64,000 bases of DNA from Escherichia phage MN01. The DNA lies in sequence record MT129652.1; one strand, given 5' to 3'. Below the pieces are notes generated by a model. That model saw only the letters and a list, made by a program, of their open reading frames with translations. It made no database searches and was not told where the DNA came from. The first letter of the stretch is position 1, and every line of letters begins with the position of its first letter. This document shows, piece by piece, positions 53,669 to 59,490 of the stretch. A program made the translations under genes and the position numbers.

Positions 53669-53697
53669 AATTCAAAAATTAAAAGAGATGTGCGATG
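53618..53697 (+). repeat. 2 x 40-nt tandem duplication (1 mismatch) at the junction with dexA
   Basis: GTTGCTGGTGAAATTCA[G/A]AAATTAAAAGAGATGTGCGATG twice: 53618-53657 and 53658-53697. Confidence 0.95.
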
Positions 53698-54378
53698 ATT
53701 GATGCTATTATTGACTTTGAAACTCTGGGAAACGGCTCGAAGGGAGCCGTTATTGACCTGGCTCTGATTACATTCGAATCTGACCCTGCTATTGTGGAAT
53801 CATTCGAAACCCTGGTTAATCGCGGCAAACGTATTAAGTTCAGTCTCGAATACCAAAAAGGTAAGCGGTTGTTCGACACAACAACCATGGGTTGGTGGAA
53901 AAAGCAATCAGCGGAAGCCCGTGTTAACTTGGCTCCTTCTGCACAAGATGTTGATACTCTGACCGGTATCCAACAAGCAATTGATTATCTGAATGGTAAT
54001 GGAATTAACAAATACGAAAGCCTTATGTGGTGTCGTGGAATGTCTTTTGACTTCCCGTTGTTTGTTGACCTTATCCGCGACCTGCAACGCAATGAGGGGA
54101 TTCCTGAGCGCGAATTGAATACCTATGACCTGGAGCCGGTTGTATTCTGGAACCAGCGAGATATCAGGACAGCCATCGAAGCCCTATCACTCGTCCGTAA
54201 GATGTGTGAAACTCCATTACCGAAGGGGACTTTAGATGGATTTGTGGCGCATGATTCGGTGCATGACTGCGCGAAAGATATTTTGATGTTGAAGTATGCC
54301 CAGCGCTATGCTCTTGGTTTAGATGAAGTTCCTTCCGAAGAAGATGCAGACCCATTATCTTTACCGAAAAAACGATAA
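53695..54378 (+). CDS. dexA: exonuclease A (DexA)
   Basis: MIDAIIDFETLGNGSKGAVIDLALI.. DEDDh N-terminus; 227 aa as in T4. Confidence 0.9.
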   Translation: MIDAIIDFETLGNGSKGAVIDLALITFESDPAIVESFETLVNRGKRIKFSLEYQKGKRLFDTTTMGWWKKQSAEARVNLAPSAQDVDTLTGIQQAIDYLNGNGINKYESLMWCRGMSFDFPLFVDLIRDLQRNEGIPERELNTYDLEPVVFWNQRDIRTAIEALSLVRKMCETPLPKGTLDGFVAHDSVHDCAKDILMLKYAQRYALGLDEVPSEEDADPLSLPKKR

Positions 54379-54385
54379 AAAGTAG

Positions 54386-54414
54386 TGTACAAGGCCAATG
54401 GAAAGAGACATAAT
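54386..54414 (+). promoter_or_regulatory. early promoter TGTACA-N17-CATAAT
   Basis: Leader TCTCATCAACTACTGATGAGGA. Confidence 0.55.
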
Positions 54415-54445
54415 TATCTCATCAACTACTGATGAGGATAACAAA

Positions 54446-54703
54446 ATGATTACTTCTTTTGAAATTGGCCAACAATATGAAATGTCTGCTCTTCAAGCTG
54501 CTGAAGCAGGTCTGACTAAAGCGTTTGAATGTGCATTTACAAATATTCGTGGTAAAATCTTTACTGTCAATAAAATTGCGGTATATGATAAAGAAACAGA
54601 CATGAACAAAGGCATCTACTTGAACGTGTCAAACGCAAAAGGTCGTCGTGAAATTATGGTTGTACAACCTAACCAACTGGCGATGTTCAATAAGGTTGCA
54701 TAA
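54446..54703 (+). CDS. single-module protein (85 aa) of the local ~80-aa module family
   Basis: ATG 54446 behind SD GAGGA; FEIGQQYEM...GKIFTVNKI... Confidence 0.55.
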   Translation: MITSFEIGQQYEMSALQAAEAGLTKAFECAFTNIRGKIFTVNKIAVYDKETDMNKGIYLNVSNAKGRREIMVVQPNQLAMFNKVA

Positions 54704-55458
54704 TGAAACCAGAATTTATTGACTTTGATGTTGTAAGCATGTATGTTCGCCCAATTAAACCATTAAAACTTGAGAAACAAAATATGACTATTGAAATTAA
54801 CAAAACTTATCAACTGATTGAACCTATTATTCAAAACGCAGCTATGGTTTCTGGGTATAATACTCTGACTGATGCTTTAGGCGAAGGTGAATTTATTGTT
54901 GAAACTTTTGTAAAAAGTAACTGGTTTGATAAAGCATATATTCTACATGCACGTCGCCTTGATACAAATGAAGTAGAAAAAATTACGGTTTATGAAGCTG
55001 AGATTGAACTCTTCAAAGAAGTTGAAGAAACTCCTATCAAAGTTGGTAAAACCTATCAGCTTATTGAAGATGCTAGTCAGTTTGGAAAGACCGTTGCAAT
55101 GCATGCTGGTTGGCGCGTACTGAAAGGTATTTTTGGATTTGCTCCATTTACCGTTAAAACAGTTAAGTACCACAATCACCAAAGCATCTTTGAATTTACT
55201 GCGGTCAATGAATCAGGTGACAATCTTGAAGCTATCCTTTATCCGCGTGAATCTGTACTGCTGGAAGAAGTTAGCGAACTGGGTGACCCTATTGACTTGC
55301 TGTGTAAACCAGTTCAAATCAAACGCCCATTTAACAGTTCCATTTGTGGTTGGGTAACAGACCAGTGGATTGAAGAGGGTGTTGAACTCCTGAACGTTGT
55401 TCATGCTGGTGAATTTACTGTTGTACCACGTTCCATGGTTGTTGAAATTTTTAATTAA
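54703..55458 (+). CDS. three-domain protein: two ~80-aa modules plus a shared C-terminal domain
   Basis: INKTYQLIE.. and VGKTYQLIED.. internal repeat; C-terminus GWVTDQWIEEGVELLNVV..FTVVP. Confidence 0.6.
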   Translation: MKPEFIDFDVVSMYVRPIKPLKLEKQNMTIEINKTYQLIEPIIQNAAMVSGYNTLTDALGEGEFIVETFVKSNWFDKAYILHARRLDTNEVEKITVYEAEIELFKEVEETPIKVGKTYQLIEDASQFGKTVAMHAGWRVLKGIFGFAPFTVKTVKYHNHQSIFEFTAVNESGDNLEAILYPRESVLLEEVSELGDPIDLLCKPVQIKRPFNSSICGWVTDQWIEEGVELLNVVHAGEFTVVPRSMVVEIFN

Positions 55459-55466
55459 ATTTAAAG

Positions 55467-55495
55467 TGTACAAACTCTTGGGGTCGGAGTATAAT
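55467..55495 (+). promoter_or_regulatory. early promoter TGTACA-N17-TATAAT; -10 in the loop of hairpin 55480-55501
   Basis: GGGGTC/GACCCC stem. Confidence 0.55.
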
Positions 55496-55537
55496 GACCC
55501 CACTGGAGAATAAACTTATTAACCAAGAGAGAAAATT

Positions 55538-56098
55538 ATGAAAGTTGAAGCTGGCGAAATCGTTCGCGTATCCAAAAAATCTCGTTCAAGAGCTGCTGGA
55601 CGTTTTGTTGAGGTTGTCAGTATTCGTGCTGATATTTTTGTTGACCATCCTGATAATGAAGTAAAGGTGCGTATCATTCCCAAAAATGGTCAGACTGAAA
55701 CTCAATTCGCTTATGTACGTGCTAAATTCCTGGAATCAACTGCTATCACTGCCACCAACCTCCCTGTGGTTGAAGAAGTTGAATCCCATGATGGATATGT
55801 GTGCGAAAGCAATGATATTCGTGGCGTAATTGCTCAAGACGTTGAAACCATTGACCAGTCTCATGTTGGGGTTGATTTTAAATGGAAATTGGGCAAAGGT
55901 GTCTTTTTTGTTTCACCTAAACCGTTTGAATATGTTGACGAACCTTTTGGTACTTATGAAACCACTAGCATGTCTGGTTACATCACAGACCAGTGGGTTG
56001 AAGAAGGCGTTAAGCTCTATAACATCGTGTTCCTTGGAACCTTTAAGGTGGTTCCTGAAAGCTTTATCGTTGAGTATGCTGATATTCATCGTGCCTAA
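55538..56098 (+). CDS. KOW-like N-terminus plus shared C-terminal domain (possible MotB-slot protein)
   Basis: MKVEAGEIVRVSKKSRSRAAGRFVEVV; C-terminus GYITDQWVEEGVKLYNIV..FKVVP. Confidence 0.55.
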   Translation: MKVEAGEIVRVSKKSRSRAAGRFVEVVSIRADIFVDHPDNEVKVRIIPKNGQTETQFAYVRAKFLESTAITATNLPVVEEVESHDGYVCESNDIRGVIAQDVETIDQSHVGVDFKWKLGKGVFFVSPKPFEYVDEPFGTYETTSMSGYITDQWVEEGVKLYNIVFLGTFKVVPESFIVEYADIHRA

Positions 56099-56146
56099 AT
56101 TATAAAAATGATAGGGTAATTTTGCCCTATCAATGAGGAGAATATT

Positions 56147-56371
56147 ATGTTTAATGAAGATTGTGTAACCACTTCCCTGACCGCTGAAGAGTTTTGGGAT
56201 ACTGCTGAAAGTGATAAAGTGATTGTGAAGAAAAACATCAATGAATTTCTTTGCACCACTGATATCATTTATGTGTATGCAGACAAAGACGCAGAACTAC
56301 CTAGCTATGCACTGTTCCGCGAAGAATCAGAAAATGGTACAGATTTTTGGAAGGAGATTTATAATGTCTAA
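56147..56371 (+). CDS. hypothetical acidic protein (74 aa)
   Basis: SD GAGGAG. Confidence 0.55.
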   Translation: MFNEDCVTTSLTAEEFWDTAESDKVIVKKNINEFLCTTDIIYVYADKDAELPSYALFREESENGTDFWKEIYNV

Positions 56372-56735
56372 ATTTGAAACTGATAAGTGGTATTATTTTA
56401 AAGATAATGTTGCTGAAAGCAGATTCCGTTTGTTATGCTCTGATAATGATAATATAGCCAATGCTATAATCAATGGCGAGGGATTTAGACCAGTCAGAAT
56501 TGAAGATGGTGATGTGTATAAAATGGAATTATCAACTGGTGAATTTGTGAGCCTATTCATAAAGGAAGATGAATTCCGTTTCTTTGAAGAAGAAAAAGAT
56601 GACGATACTGAAGATGAATGCGAAGACGCAGCTCCATCTGAGCCAAGCGAATTCCCTTTGACTAAAATCACCATCTCTAATAACTCCGAAGCCTGGACCG
56701 TTTACCAGATGTTGAAAGCACACTTTAAGGAATAA
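56364..56735 (+). CDS. module-family protein with acidic tail (123 aa)
   Basis: ATG 56364 behind SD AAGGAG; ..GEGFRPVRIE..EDEFRFFEEE. Confidence 0.55.
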   Translation: MSKFETDKWYYFKDNVAESRFRLLCSDNDNIANAIINGEGFRPVRIEDGDVYKMELSTGEFVSLFIKEDEFRFFEEEKDDDTEDECEDAAPSEPSEFPLTKITISNNSEAWTVYQMLKAHFKE

Positions 56736-56736
56736 C

Positions 56737-56913
56737 ATGCCACTTTATGATTACAAATGTCAATCTGATGACTGCGCGAAAGAATACGAAAAAATCAAGA
56801 AAATCTCTGAAAGAGATAATGATGTTTGTCCTGATTGCCATCGGCTGGCTGTTCGGTTAGTCTCGGCTCCTAAACATGTTAATGGCGGTTTTTACGACCT
56901 GCTGACTAAGTGA
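56737..56913 (+). CDS. FmdB-type zinc-ribbon protein (58 aa)
   Basis: MPLYDYKCQSDDC...CPDC pattern. Confidence 0.55.
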   Translation: MPLYDYKCQSDDCAKEYEKIKKISERDNDVCPDCHRLAVRLVSAPKHVNGGFYDLLTK

Positions 56914-56919
56914 GAAATT

Positions 56920-57180
56920 ATGAAATACATTAATCGTTCTATTGCCGCGCTGGTGCTGGCGGTTTCATTGGCTGGTTGTACTGATGCAGATAACGCCATT
57001 CGTGTATTAGATGCAAACGGCTATGAGCAAATCCAAATCACCGGTTATAACTGGTTGGGTTGCTCTGAAGATGATTTTCAGCATACTGGTTTTACAGCCG
57101 TAGGCCCAACTGGTAAGAAAGTTAAAGGAACTGTTTGTTCTGGTTTGCTGTTTAAGAATTCAACCATCCGATTTGAATGA
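56920..57180 (+). CDS. lipoprotein (86 aa)
   Basis: Lipobox SLAGC. Confidence 0.6.
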   Translation: MKYINRSIAALVLAVSLAGCTDADNAIRVLDANGYEQIQITGYNWLGCSEDDFQHTGFTAVGPTGKKVKGTVCSGLLFKNSTIRFE

Positions 57181-57187
57181 GGCTATT

Positions 57188-57592
57188 ATGTTTAAAATTG
57201 GAAAGAGTTATTGCATTAAAGATTTAGATGGCTTCCTTAAACATGTCGGTATGCCCGGTAGCATTTTGAACCAACAAGGAACCTCTATTATTGATTTGGT
57301 TACTACCAAAGAGTTTTCAGTCACTAAGATGGAAGCAAATGTTGTTACGGAATTTAGTACTATCGATGGAACTGGATTTTCTTTCCATAGTCGTAATGGA
57401 ACCGGTCTTATTTTTGGTGATGAATTTAAATATTTTGAAGAAACCCCGATAAAGGAATGTGATTCTGAAATAACCGAACAGGAATCAAAAGAGGATATCG
57501 TTGTTACCGGTGGCGATGTTATTATTACGGTTAAAACTGAAGTCGGACGCCTACAAGCTATTAAAATGTTAGAGCAGCTTCGATTCAAATAA
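57188..57592 (+). CDS. module-family protein (134 aa)
   Basis: ATG 57188 after SD GAGG; FKIGKSYCIKD...EFSVTKM...DEFKYFEE. Confidence 0.55.
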   Translation: MFKIGKSYCIKDLDGFLKHVGMPGSILNQQGTSIIDLVTTKEFSVTKMEANVVTEFSTIDGTGFSFHSRNGTGLIFGDEFKYFEETPIKECDSEITEQESKEDIVVTGGDVIITVKTEVGRLQAIKMLEQLRFK

Positions 57593-57610
57593 AAGGCCTT
57601 CGGGCCTTTT
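57591..57610 (+). terminator. rho-independent terminator
   Basis: AAAAGGCC-TTCG-GGCCTTTT. Confidence 0.8.
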
Positions 57611-57635
57611 TGCTTTAAAATATGTGACTTATAAT
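57611..57635 (+). promoter_or_regulatory. MotA-box middle promoter TGCTTTA-N12-TATAAT (gene 39)
   Basis: Consensus box abutting the terminator. Confidence 0.6.
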
Positions 57636-57660
57636 ACCTCCATACACAAGAGGAAAGATG

Positions 57661-59490
57661 ATGATTAATAATGAAATTAAAGTACTCTCGGACGTTGAGC
57701 ATATCAAAAAACGTTCCGGGATGTATATTGGTTCCAGTTCAAATGAAGCGCATGAGCGATTCTTGTTTGGTGAATATAAGTCCGTAAGCTATGTTCCTGG
57801 TATTGTAAAACTGATTGATGAAATTATCGATAACTCTGTTGATGAAGCAATTCGCACCAGTTTTAAATTTGCCAATAAAATTGATGTCCAAATTAAAGAT
57901 AATCAGATTTCGGTTTCCGATAATGGCCGTGGTATTCCACAGGCAATGGTTACAGACCAAAACGGTGAACAAATCCCTGGCCCTGTTGCAGCATGGACTA
58001 TTCCAAAAGCTGGTGGTAACTTCGGCGATGATGCTGAACGTAAAACTGGCGGGATGAACGGCGTCGGGTCTTCTCTGACCAATATTTTCTCTGTATTGTT
58101 TACCGGGATTACCGCTGATGGTGCAAATGAAATCACCGTTAACTGCTCCAATGGTATGGAAAACAAATGTTGGTCGACTAAGAAATCAAAAGGTAAAGGT
58201 ACGACTGTTATATTTATTCCAGACTTTAGTCACTTTGAAGAAAATAGTCTGTCCCAGATTTATCTGGATATTACATTGGACCGTCTGCAGACTCTTGCGG
58301 TTGTTTATCCGGATATTCAGTTTACCTTTAATGGTAAAAAGGTTGATGGTAATTTCAAAAAGTTTGCCAAGCAATTCGGAACCGAAGTTGTTATCCAGGA
58401 AACTGATACAGTATCGATGGCCTTTACGACTAGTCCGGATGGTTTCCGTCAGTTGACTTATGTCAACAACATTCATACAAAGAATGGTGGGCACCACGTT
58501 GAATGTGTTATGGATGATATCTGTGAACATCTTCAACCAGCCATTAAACGCAAATATAAAGGCATTGAGGTGACCAAGGCACGAGTTAAAGAATGTCTCA
58601 CCATGCTTATGTTCATCCGCGATATGAGCAACATGCGATTTGATTCCCAGACTAAGGAGCGATTGACTTCTCCGGCTGGTGAAATTCGAAATCACATTAA
58701 GATTGATGCCAAGAAAATCGCGCAAGCTATTCTGAAAAATGAACCGCTGATTATGCCGATTGTTGAAGCTGCATTAGCCCGTAAATTGGCAGCAGAGAAA
58801 GCAGCAGAGACAAAGGCGAATAAGAAAGCTTCGAAGGCCAAGGTGCAGAAACATATCAAGGCAAACGAATGGGGTAATGATAAACTGGAAACGACTCTGT
58901 TCCTGACCGAAGGTGATTCCGCAACCGGTCCATTTATCAAGGTTCGCGACCGTGAATTGCAAGGTGCTTATCCGTTACGCGGTAAGTTCAAAAACACATG
59001 GGGTCTGAAAGCTGTTGACGTTATGAAGAACGCCGAAGCCTTTGATGTGTGTGCGATTACTGGTTTAACGATTGGACAACCGGCCGAGAATATGAATTAC
59101 CGAAACATTGCTATCATGACAGATGCGGATGTGGATGGTGTCGGTAGTATCTATCCATCGTTATTGGCGTTTTTCAGTAACTGGCCAGAGTTGTTCCATG
59201 AAGGACGAATTCGCTTTGTGAAAACTCCTGTTATTATTGCGCAGCTCAAAGATAAACAAGAATGGTTCTATTCTCTTCCTGACTATGAAGAAGCTAAGGA
59301 TAAACTTCCGAAGCACACCATCCGATATATCAAGGGGCTTGGTTCTCTGGAAGATGCCGAGTACAAACGCGTATTGCTCGAACCGGTATTCGAAGTTGTT
59401 GAATTACCTGACAACTGGAAAGAACTGTTCGAAATGCTCTTCGGTAAAGATTCCCAGCAGCGTAAAGATTGGATGAATGCGACACTATAA
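57661..59490 (+). CDS. 39: DNA topoisomerase II large (ATPase) subunit, gp39 and gp60 fused
   Basis: INNEIKVLSDVEHIKKRSGMYIGS..; C-terminus MTDADVDGVGSIYPSLL..GRIRFVKTPVII corresponds to T4 gp60; ATG 57658 also possible. Confidence 0.96.
   Translation: MINNEIKVLSDVEHIKKRSGMYIGSSSNEAHERFLFGEYKSVSYVPGIVKLIDEIIDNSVDEAIRTSFKFANKIDVQIKDNQISVSDNGRGIPQAMVTDQNGEQIPGPVAAWTIPKAGGNFGDDAERKTGGMNGVGSSLTNIFSVLFTGITADGANEITVNCSNGMENKCWSTKKSKGKGTTVIFIPDFSHFEENSLSQIYLDITLDRLQTLAVVYPDIQFTFNGKKVDGNFKKFAKQFGTEVVIQETDTVSMAFTTSPDGFRQLTYVNNIHTKNGGHHVECVMDDICEHLQPAIKRKYKGIEVTKARVKECLTMLMFIRDMSNMRFDSQTKERLTSPAGEIRNHIKIDAKKIAQAILKNEPLIMPIVEAALARKLAAEKAAETKANKKASKAKVQKHIKANEWGNDKLETTLFLTEGDSATGPFIKVRDRELQGAYPLRGKFKNTWGLKAVDVMKNAEAFDVCAITGLTIGQPAENMNYRNIAIMTDADVDGVGSIYPSLLAFFSNWPELFHEGRIRFVKTPVIIAQLKDKQEWFYSLPDYEEAKDKLPKHTIRYIKGLGSLEDAEYKRVLLEPVFEVVELPDNWKELFEMLFGKDSQQRKDWMNATL

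Follow-up and report, generated by a model that had tools for sequence, protein, structure and literature searches.

The genes between dexA and gene 39 of Escherichia phage MN01 (sequence record MT129652.1; positions 54446-57592 of the window, i.e. of the whole stretch of 64,000 nucleotides that was analyzed) include three that encode one and the same small domain, which occurs twice in tandem in the orthologue of MotB.1 and once each in the orthologue of GoF and in a second, GoF-like paralogue. This module, an SH3-like five-stranded barrel of around 80 residues, is the N-terminal domain with an 'LSm-like fold' that was published for GoF as well as for MotB.1 and Frd.2 (Kim et al. 2025, PMC12152347). 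The MotB.1 orthologue shares, in addition, its C-terminal domain with the MotB protein that is encoded next to it. The sharing of this domain between MotB and MotB.1, and its connection to different N-terminal domains in further 'categories', has been published as well (Son et al. 2021, PMC7827196). Both central observations are thus already known, and their novelty is low because module and tail have been described and the genes are annotated orthologues. The additions are modest and comprise a two-barrel MotB.1 in Gaprivervirus, a frequent tandem duplication, at least three types of tail, a very narrow family, a possible fifth copy and a frameshift in T4. The original prediction, made from the letters alone, had proposed five copies of an ~80-residue module and a tail common to two genes within the equivalent of the motB/cef/goF region of T4. 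The five open reading frames (ORFs) it listed are all present and were correctly delimited, and the annotations of RZ, SP18, T4 and RB69 confirm the equivalence of the region. The relevant features are:

54446-54703, plus strand: ORF A, 85 amino acids, Gaprivervirus-restricted ORFan, phrog_17795
54703-55458, plus strand: ORF B, 251 amino acids, MotB.1 orthologue (naming of JS98/SP18)
54781-55029, plus strand: module 1 of ORF B (B1, residues 27-109), SH3/LSm-like barrel
55030-55278, plus strand: module 2 of ORF B (B2, residues 110-192), tandem duplicate of module 1
55285-55458, plus strand: C-terminal domain of ORF B (residues ~195-251), MotB-type, predicted to be five-stranded
55538-56098, plus strand: ORF C, 186 amino acids, MotB (Pfam PF17613 E 2.3e-57, phrog_1671 E 4e-69)
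55919-56083, plus strand: C-terminal domain of ORF C in common with ORF B (residues ~128-182)
56364-56735, plus strand: ORF E, 123 amino acids, GoF orthologue (goF in the SP18 annotation; phrog_622 E 2.7e-31)
56364-56597, plus strand: barrel module of ORF E (residues 1-78), followed by an acidic linker and a GoF-type C-terminal domain
57188-57592, plus strand: ORF H, 134 amino acids, RB69ORF005c-like GoF paralogue
57188-57451, plus strand: barrel module of ORF H (residues 1-88), followed by its own type of C-terminal domain

The comparison of single sequences is blind to the module: pairwise BLASTP of the eight locus proteins found no similarity within it, and profiles were therefore needed. 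We collected 52 dexA-centred loci from IMG/VR together with T4, RB69, RZ and SP18, built orthologue-only alignments and compared these by hhalign, such a profile-profile comparison having been named beforehand as the test that could refute the homology. It supported the homology of four copies. B1 matched B2 with a probability of 92.7% (E 4e-7, 77 columns, 32% identity) and the module of ORF H with 93.1% (E 3e-7), and the modules of ORFs E and H matched each other with 87.9% (E 3e-6). The controls (cef, 39.1, 39.2 and the C-terminal domains) stayed below 3% against the module profiles of ORFs B and H; the highest negative control was the GoF N-terminal (ORF E) module against 39.1, with 28.8% and E 6e-4 over 24 columns only. 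Against broad (union) module profiles 39.1 and 39.2 scored at most 2%, and Cef remained below 1% both there and in the orthologue-only set. Iterative searches by jackhmmer, seeded with any single copy, recovered the other copies as well as T4 GoF, T4 MotB.1 and ORF005c of RB69, in every case along the entire module and without loss of register, with E values of 1e-15 to 1e-24 for the two T4 proteins (ORF E to T4 GoF, E 2e-22). Module hidden Markov models (HMMs) that had been trained on loci lacking the frd region, and hence without Frd.2, matched residues 2-85 of T4 Frd.2 with E 9e-9 and 5e-7 and T4 GoF at ~1e-21; only the H-seeded HMM matched T4 MotB.1 (4.5e-15), no MotB.1 match being reported for the GoF-seeded one. 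Furthermore, PHROG 622 takes in the whole length of ORFs E and H and touches ORF B, and Pfam FRD2 matches ORFs E and H weakly (E 0.0061 for ORF E). Within an alignment of 15 module instances Y8, F43 and E79 are invariant and K6 is nearly so, and these columns coincide with the K, Y, F and E anchors of the motif from which the module had been proposed.

The family is very narrow. A scan of all ORFs of the window with module and tail HMMs gave no further copies, and a search of 1.84 billion representative proteins with the module profile returned 29 clusters at E <= 1e-3. One of these, a 530-amino-acid repeat protein that matched profile positions 11-37 only, looks spurious, which leaves around 28 credible phage protein clusters, at least 11 of them with two module copies; the same search found no sequence relatives beyond these clusters. 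A word-indexed homology search reached only down to around 48% identity for GoF and 91% for ORF A and so helped little with distant relationships.

The structure prediction that had been suggested as a check yielded two like-folded SH3-like barrels in ORF B. According to the AlphaFold2 (AF2) model (predicted local distance difference test score, pLDDT, 76.7), this protein consists of a disordered leader (residues 1-26), two equivalent barrels in tandem and a five-strand tail of the MotB type. The order strand-helix-strand-strand-strand-helix-strand is predicted twice, at residues 35-107 and 117-190, with strands at 35-38, 63-71, 78-85, 91-97 and 104-107 and a helix at 46-59 in module 1, and strands at 117-120, 149-157, 162-169, 174-179 and 187-190 and a helix at 131-144 in module 2. 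The modelled strands of the C-terminal domain cover residues 203-207, 213-224, 227-234, 237-242 and 246-249. As modelled, then, the module is a bent five-stranded antiparallel beta-barrel of around 80 residues. A Foldseek search with the model matched MotB.1 proteins, including T4 MotB.1 (P39415) with E 7e-7. Module 1 is the copy that is kept in the single-module MotB.1 proteins of 180 amino acids; module 2 was found in Gaprivervirus loci only, and the single-module homologues are gapped at its position.

The second central observation, the C-terminal domain common to ORFs B and C, is evident at the level of single sequences. BLASTP aligned residues 202-248 of B with residues 128-179 of C (48% identity over 52 amino acids, E 2.6e-12), the sole significant pair among the eight proteins, and the identity of about 60% that had been quoted for the tails corresponds to 20 of 33 residues (61%) in the 33-residue core. 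Pfam PF17613 (motB) scored 193.8 bits with ORF C and 33.3 bits with residues 211-247 of ORF B, at a gathering cut-off of 25, and hhalign of the orthologue profiles of both tails gave 99.8%. Even at the DNA level, 55341-55400 and 55969-56028 are 73% identical over 60 nucleotides. MotB has been described as a KOW-like N-terminal domain followed by a C-terminal domain with a predicted OB-fold (Son et al. 2021, PMC7827196). The KOW-like N-terminus that had also been proposed for ORF C agrees with the published HHpred result (PMC7827196), whereas our profile of the MotB N-terminus (N-terminal query set) retrieved no KOW protein from the PDB sequences, the best matches being designed double-psi beta-barrel proteins at E 0.011, and the Pfam scan of the locus proteins did not report a KOW domain either. 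Given the outcome of the PDB profile search, the KOW assignment rests on the published HHpred analysis. The module HMMs gave no barrel match in ORF C, and ORF B, having no KOW-like N-terminal domain, is therefore of the MotB.1 type and not a MotB. The MotB of the window carries an insert of around 23 residues (ESHDGYVCESNDIRGVIAQDV) between VVEEV and ETIDQSH, which SP18 and further close relatives lack in their MotB (160-167 amino acids) and which the MotB forms of 183-188 amino acids in other loci possess.

Could the resemblance between the module copies be convergent, small sequences that are rich in beta structure and acidic at the tail having become similar without common ancestry? The negative BLASTP result would fit with that, as would a pairwise identity among the copies of just 13-29% and the shallowness of the family profiles (effective number of sequences, Neff, ~1.3 for B1 and B2), a point that counts against our own reading too. 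The limits of such comparisons also show in a match of 97.5% between B1 and the 'MotB N-terminus', which we discarded as probably artefactual, since homologues of the latter were chosen via the shared C-terminal domain, which likely brought in module-bearing MotB.1 proteins. Convergence is nevertheless hard to reconcile with matches of 88-93% that are full-length and in register while most controls remain below 3% (with the 24-column match of GoF-N to 39.1 at 28.8%), with the reciprocal recovery of the copies in iterative searches, with the match to an untrained Frd.2 at E 9e-9 and with K, Y, F and E columns common to all copies. The identical order of secondary-structure elements in both modules of ORF B, the clustering of the copies in one genomic block and the fact that PSI-BLAST and AlphaFold3 led independently to the published family (PMC12152347) point in the same direction. 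We regard convergence as largely refuted already and highly improbable, and have great confidence in the homology of the modules and in the protein identities as given above for ORFs B, E and H. A domain family as divergent as this one was recoverable by reading at the sequence level, where the field needed PSI-BLAST and AlphaFold.

The fifth copy, proposed for ORF A, could not be established in the same way, and here a rival explanation has nearly the same standing: ORF A may be an unrelated, lineage-specific ORFan, a short beta-rich protein that fits the motif by chance, which would leave four copies in the window. The protein is represented by 6 clusters, all at least 91% identical, and is present in 6 of 57 loci, of Gaprivervirus only. 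Neither the HMMs nor jackhmmer matched it to the module even at E 10 (3.8 bits against the module profile), hhalign against the orthologue-only module profiles gave around 1%, it stands alone in phrog_17795 and it is not among the 29 clusters that the module profile matched library-wide. The AF2 model, based on seven near-identical sequences, is of low confidence (pLDDT 59.9), and its best MotB.1-like matches by Foldseek in BFVD, a Shigella phage MotB.1-like protein and T4 MotB.1, have non-significant E values of 0.14-0.16. All this weighs against counting ORF A as a barrel. On the other hand, hhalign against the broad module profile gave 39.8% (P 3e-4), with 76 of the 85 residues aligned in register (76 columns; residues 5-84 to profile positions 2-82), and the native score of 22.1 exceeded that of all control genes and the maximum of 15.3 among 150 column shuffles, none of which reached it. 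The predicted order of elements in ORF A (strand-helix-strand-strand-strand-helix) agrees with that of the module, the two MotB.1 proteins occupy ranks 4 and 5 in the whole of BFVD, and ORF A abuts motB.1 via an ATGA start/stop overlap. Considering these data, we give roughly even odds to ORF A being a strongly diverged stand-alone barrel and put the chance of an unrelated ORFan just below one half.

The domain shuffling that had been proposed for the region was borne out. For a census of architectures, all ORFs of the loci were scanned with the module and tail HMMs, and seven module-containing architectures were recovered across the 52 dexA-linked loci:

module with GoF tail: 23
module with ORF005c-type tail: 9
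module with MotB tail: 11
two modules with MotB tail: 6, all Gaprivervirus
two modules alone: 9
two modules with ORF005c-type tail: 4
module alone: 24

The module thus combines with at least three types of C-terminal domain, and its tandem duplication is frequent. The idea of a family built from two modules proved too simple, as at least five building blocks can be discerned: the SH3/LSm-like barrel, the MotB C-terminal domain, the KOW-like N-terminal domain of MotB, the GoF C-terminal domain and the ORF005c-type C-terminal domain. The latter two showed no signal with each other by hhalign (0.4%), although PHROG 622 spans both proteins over their full length. In another lineage of MotB.1 proteins (P0049, P0168 and related proteins of 246-250 amino acids; loci L037 and L039) a second, weakly matching barrel is located N-terminally (MNTFD.NAKYIVTP...GNEFRIL...), whereas the second barrel of ORF B is internal, which points to independent tandem duplications. 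The family very probably grew as genes were duplicated locally, barrels were duplicated in tandem within a gene and C-terminal domains were exchanged; ORF B is a MotB.1 orthologue that had its barrel duplicated in tandem and kept its tail in common with the DNA-binding protein MotB (ORF C), ORF E is GoF, and ORF H is a second GoF-like paralogue with a different tail.

At the C-terminal boundary of the module short echoes can be seen in the DNA. Positions 55012-55040 and 57425-57453, which encode FKEVEETPIK at the B1/B2 junction and FKYFEETPIK between the module and the linker of ORF H, are 76% identical over 29 nucleotides, and positions 56568-56591 and 57419-57442 (DEFRFFEE and DEFKYFEE) are around 75% identical. 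These echoes may be candidate recombination junctions or a mere reflection of the conserved motif. Repeats of the kind found in clustered regularly interspaced short palindromic repeat (CRISPR) arrays, or other repeats at the DNA level, were considered and rejected, as only short codon-level echoes are present. A more daring scenario, to which we attach a rather low probability, is that the dexA-39 block constitutes a hot spot, where the barrel was repeatedly duplicated and re-fused at the conserved F-x-E-E(-T-P-I-K) junction, with at least two independent tandem duplications in MotB.1 (internal in ORF B, N-terminal in other phages) and with ORF A as a sixth, barely recognizable stand-alone copy. 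If true, the barrels would belong to those host-takeover domain families of T-even phages that diversify fastest, and the double-barrel MotB.1 would be a bivalent nucleic-acid or partner clamp that is tethered to DNA by its MotB tail.

The comparison of the loci also indicated that motB.1 is disrupted in T4 and RB69. In the T4 reference (NC_000866, 7142-7330, minus strand; our locus L003) the gene encodes 119 amino acids and ends at GWVTDQWIGRWR followed by a stop. Relative to the TGGATTGAAGATGG-type sequence of 17 other loci it has one additional G (TGGATTGGAAGATGG), which shifts the frame; in the +1 frame the gene reads on as EDGVELLNVVHAGEYSVVPRSAVVAILN up to a stop, an intact MotB-type tail. 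The T4 reference MotB.1, the form used in the published experiments, thus appears to be truncated by a frameshift and to have lost most of its MotB-type tail, which could help to explain its missing phenotype. Intact orthologues such as ORF B should be better subjects for functional work. In RB69 (NC_004928, 8330-8520, minus strand; locus L004) two changes of frame disrupt motB.1, and the annotated 29-amino-acid peptide RB69p012, which Son et al. 2021 placed in 'category 3', is a remnant of the MotB-type C-terminal domain.

As to the locus as a whole, the stretch 54300-57700 is 94-96% identical in DNA to the T4-like coliphages pEC-M719-6WT.2, vB_EcoM_RZ and SP18 of the genus Gaprivervirus, and the explanation that accounts best for all observations, namely that a T4-like phage (Gaprivervirus) is represented here by its 'non-essential early' block from dexA to gene 39, is in our opinion very probably correct. 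Gene identities were derived from the RefSeq annotation of RZ and SP18, from comparison with T4 and RB69 and from Pfam and PHROG scans, and the gene order in these annotated relatives is dexA, motB.1, motB, cef, goF, 39.2, 39.1, ORF005c-like and 39. ORF B is labelled motB.1 or MotB-like in SP18 and RZ (phrog_2333 E 1.4e-77) and ORF C motB in the same two records. The orthologue of ORF H is noted as 'similar to RB69ORF005c' in the SP18 record, and ORF H matches phrog_622 over its full length (E 2.4e-14) and phrog_13003 (goF) with residues 86-134 (E 1.1e-7). The remaining genes serve as context and, in the case of ORFs D, F and G, fall outside the family:

53695-54378: dexA
56147-56371, plus strand: ORF D, Cef (Pfam PF24050 E 2.6e-23)
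56737-56913, plus strand: ORF F, 39.2, FmdB-type zinc ribbon (Pfam Zn_ribbon_8 E 2e-11, phrog_902)
56920-57180, plus strand: ORF G, 39.1, lipoprotein with a LAGC lipobox
57658-59490: gene 39

The start of ORF A at 54446 is favoured by a ribosome-binding site (GAGG, 8 nucleotides upstream), the one at 54398 being poor. Two overlaps are suggestive of translational coupling, one between the stop of ORF A and the start of ORF B (ATGA, 54700-54706) and one of 8 nucleotides between the end of cef and the start of goF (56364-56371). The 79-nucleotide gap upstream of motB holds the sole plausible promoter-like site (TGTACA-17-TATAAT, 55467-55495), and the gap between motB and cef an 8-bp hairpin (56109-56132) with a terminator-like score on the minus strand only; the counts of the promoter/terminator scan equalled those expected from shuffled sequence. 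Phage RZ (L001, 4837-5544) has an additional gene, annotated as 'endonuclease VII', between the orthologue of ORF H and gene 39, probably the insertion of a mobile nuclease. The window lacks this gene, its gap between ORF H and gene 39 measuring 65 nucleotides.

The function, for which the original prediction had no proposal, is partly known in T4. This applies to MotB, which binds DNA non-specifically, is toxic if overproduced, co-purifies with H-NS/StpA and doubles the burst size (Patterson-West et al. 2018, PMC6070864) and which alters H-NS footprints (PMC7827196). The GoF(D25Y) mutant of T4 stabilizes mRNA with the 5'UR of gene 41 post-transcriptionally, the only RNA-related activity shown for the family (PMC12152347). 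On this basis one may propose that the barrels provide surfaces for the binding of nucleic acid (most likely RNA) or of a partner, that the MotB-type tail would give association with DNA or the nucleoid, with ORF B as a bivalent version, and that the proteins would tune the nucleic-acid metabolism of host or phage early in infection while being non-essential in laboratory hosts. The data on the T4 proteins weigh against this proposal, as the reporter assay responded little to GoF or MotB.1 in their wild-type form, deletion of either was without burst or latent-period phenotype and AlphaFold3 yielded no confident multimers, unlike the rings of true Sm/Hfq proteins (all PMC12152347). Nucleic-acid binding in host takeover would be the likeliest role, yet we put forward the binding mechanism of the barrels only tentatively, at clearly less than an even chance. 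Alternatively, the barrels could be protein-protein adaptors, a speculation of the original prediction, and would then have no direct nucleic-acid binding, each paralogue docking a host target of its own, for instance a protein of the nucleoid, a factor related to RNA polymerase or Rho, or a component of the degradosome. The missing RNA effect of the wild-type proteins is in line with such adaptors, GoF(D25Y) possibly being a gain-of-function mutant (PMC12152347), and so are the selection of goF mutations on rho-mutant hosts (T4/RB69 annotation notes; PMC12152347) and the co-purification of MotB with H-NS/StpA (PMC6070864). But no partner has been identified and the association between MotB and H-NS may go through DNA (PMC6070864), and we consider adaptors of this kind a somewhat unlikely solution.

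Compared to known systems, true membership of Hfq/Sm was rejected, given the lack of Sm1/Sm2 motifs by Pfam, a misplaced helix and no predicted ring. In the AF2 model of ORF B the helix of the module lies between strands 1 and 2 and not, as in Hfq/Sm, before strand 1, a departure from canonical Sm that counts against our reading, and no ring oligomer was predicted for the family proteins (PMC12152347). Generic SH3-like small beta-barrels (Tudor, KOW, FeoA) and Hfq/Sm alike are set apart by the module having its sequence relatives within the ~28 phage clusters only. The likeness to the GoF/MotB.1/Frd.2 family, by contrast, extends to the same N-terminal five-stranded barrel of ~80-90 residues, the same layout of a barrel and a variable C-terminal domain and the same genomic block in a Tevenvirinae genome, here located between dexA and gene 39, which by analogy with T4 would be early and dispensable (PMC12152347). 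ORF A would at best be a very distant member. T4 itself differs in that its MotB.1 has one barrel, where ORF B has two in tandem, and in the absence of the ORF H paralogue, which is present in RB69 as ORF005c; the searched part of the text of PMC12152347 holds no mention of tandem duplication or of RB69. The OB-fold of MotB was assigned to residues 69-149 (PMC7827196), whereas ORF B shares the last ~45-55 residues only, modelled as a compact five-strand unit, and the T4 MotB.1 that served as a reference in that study is shortened by the frameshift where ORF B is intact. Finally, as to MotB/MotB.1 (PF17613), ORF C is MotB, with an N-terminal domain that was published as KOW-like and its C-terminal domain, ORF B has in common with it the final ~50 residues, among them the conserved GW/Y-I/V-TDQW-x-E-x-G-V-x-L-x-N-V/I-V core, and 'categories 2-4' of PMC7827196, with one C-terminal domain behind varied N-terminal domains, correspond to what is found at this locus.

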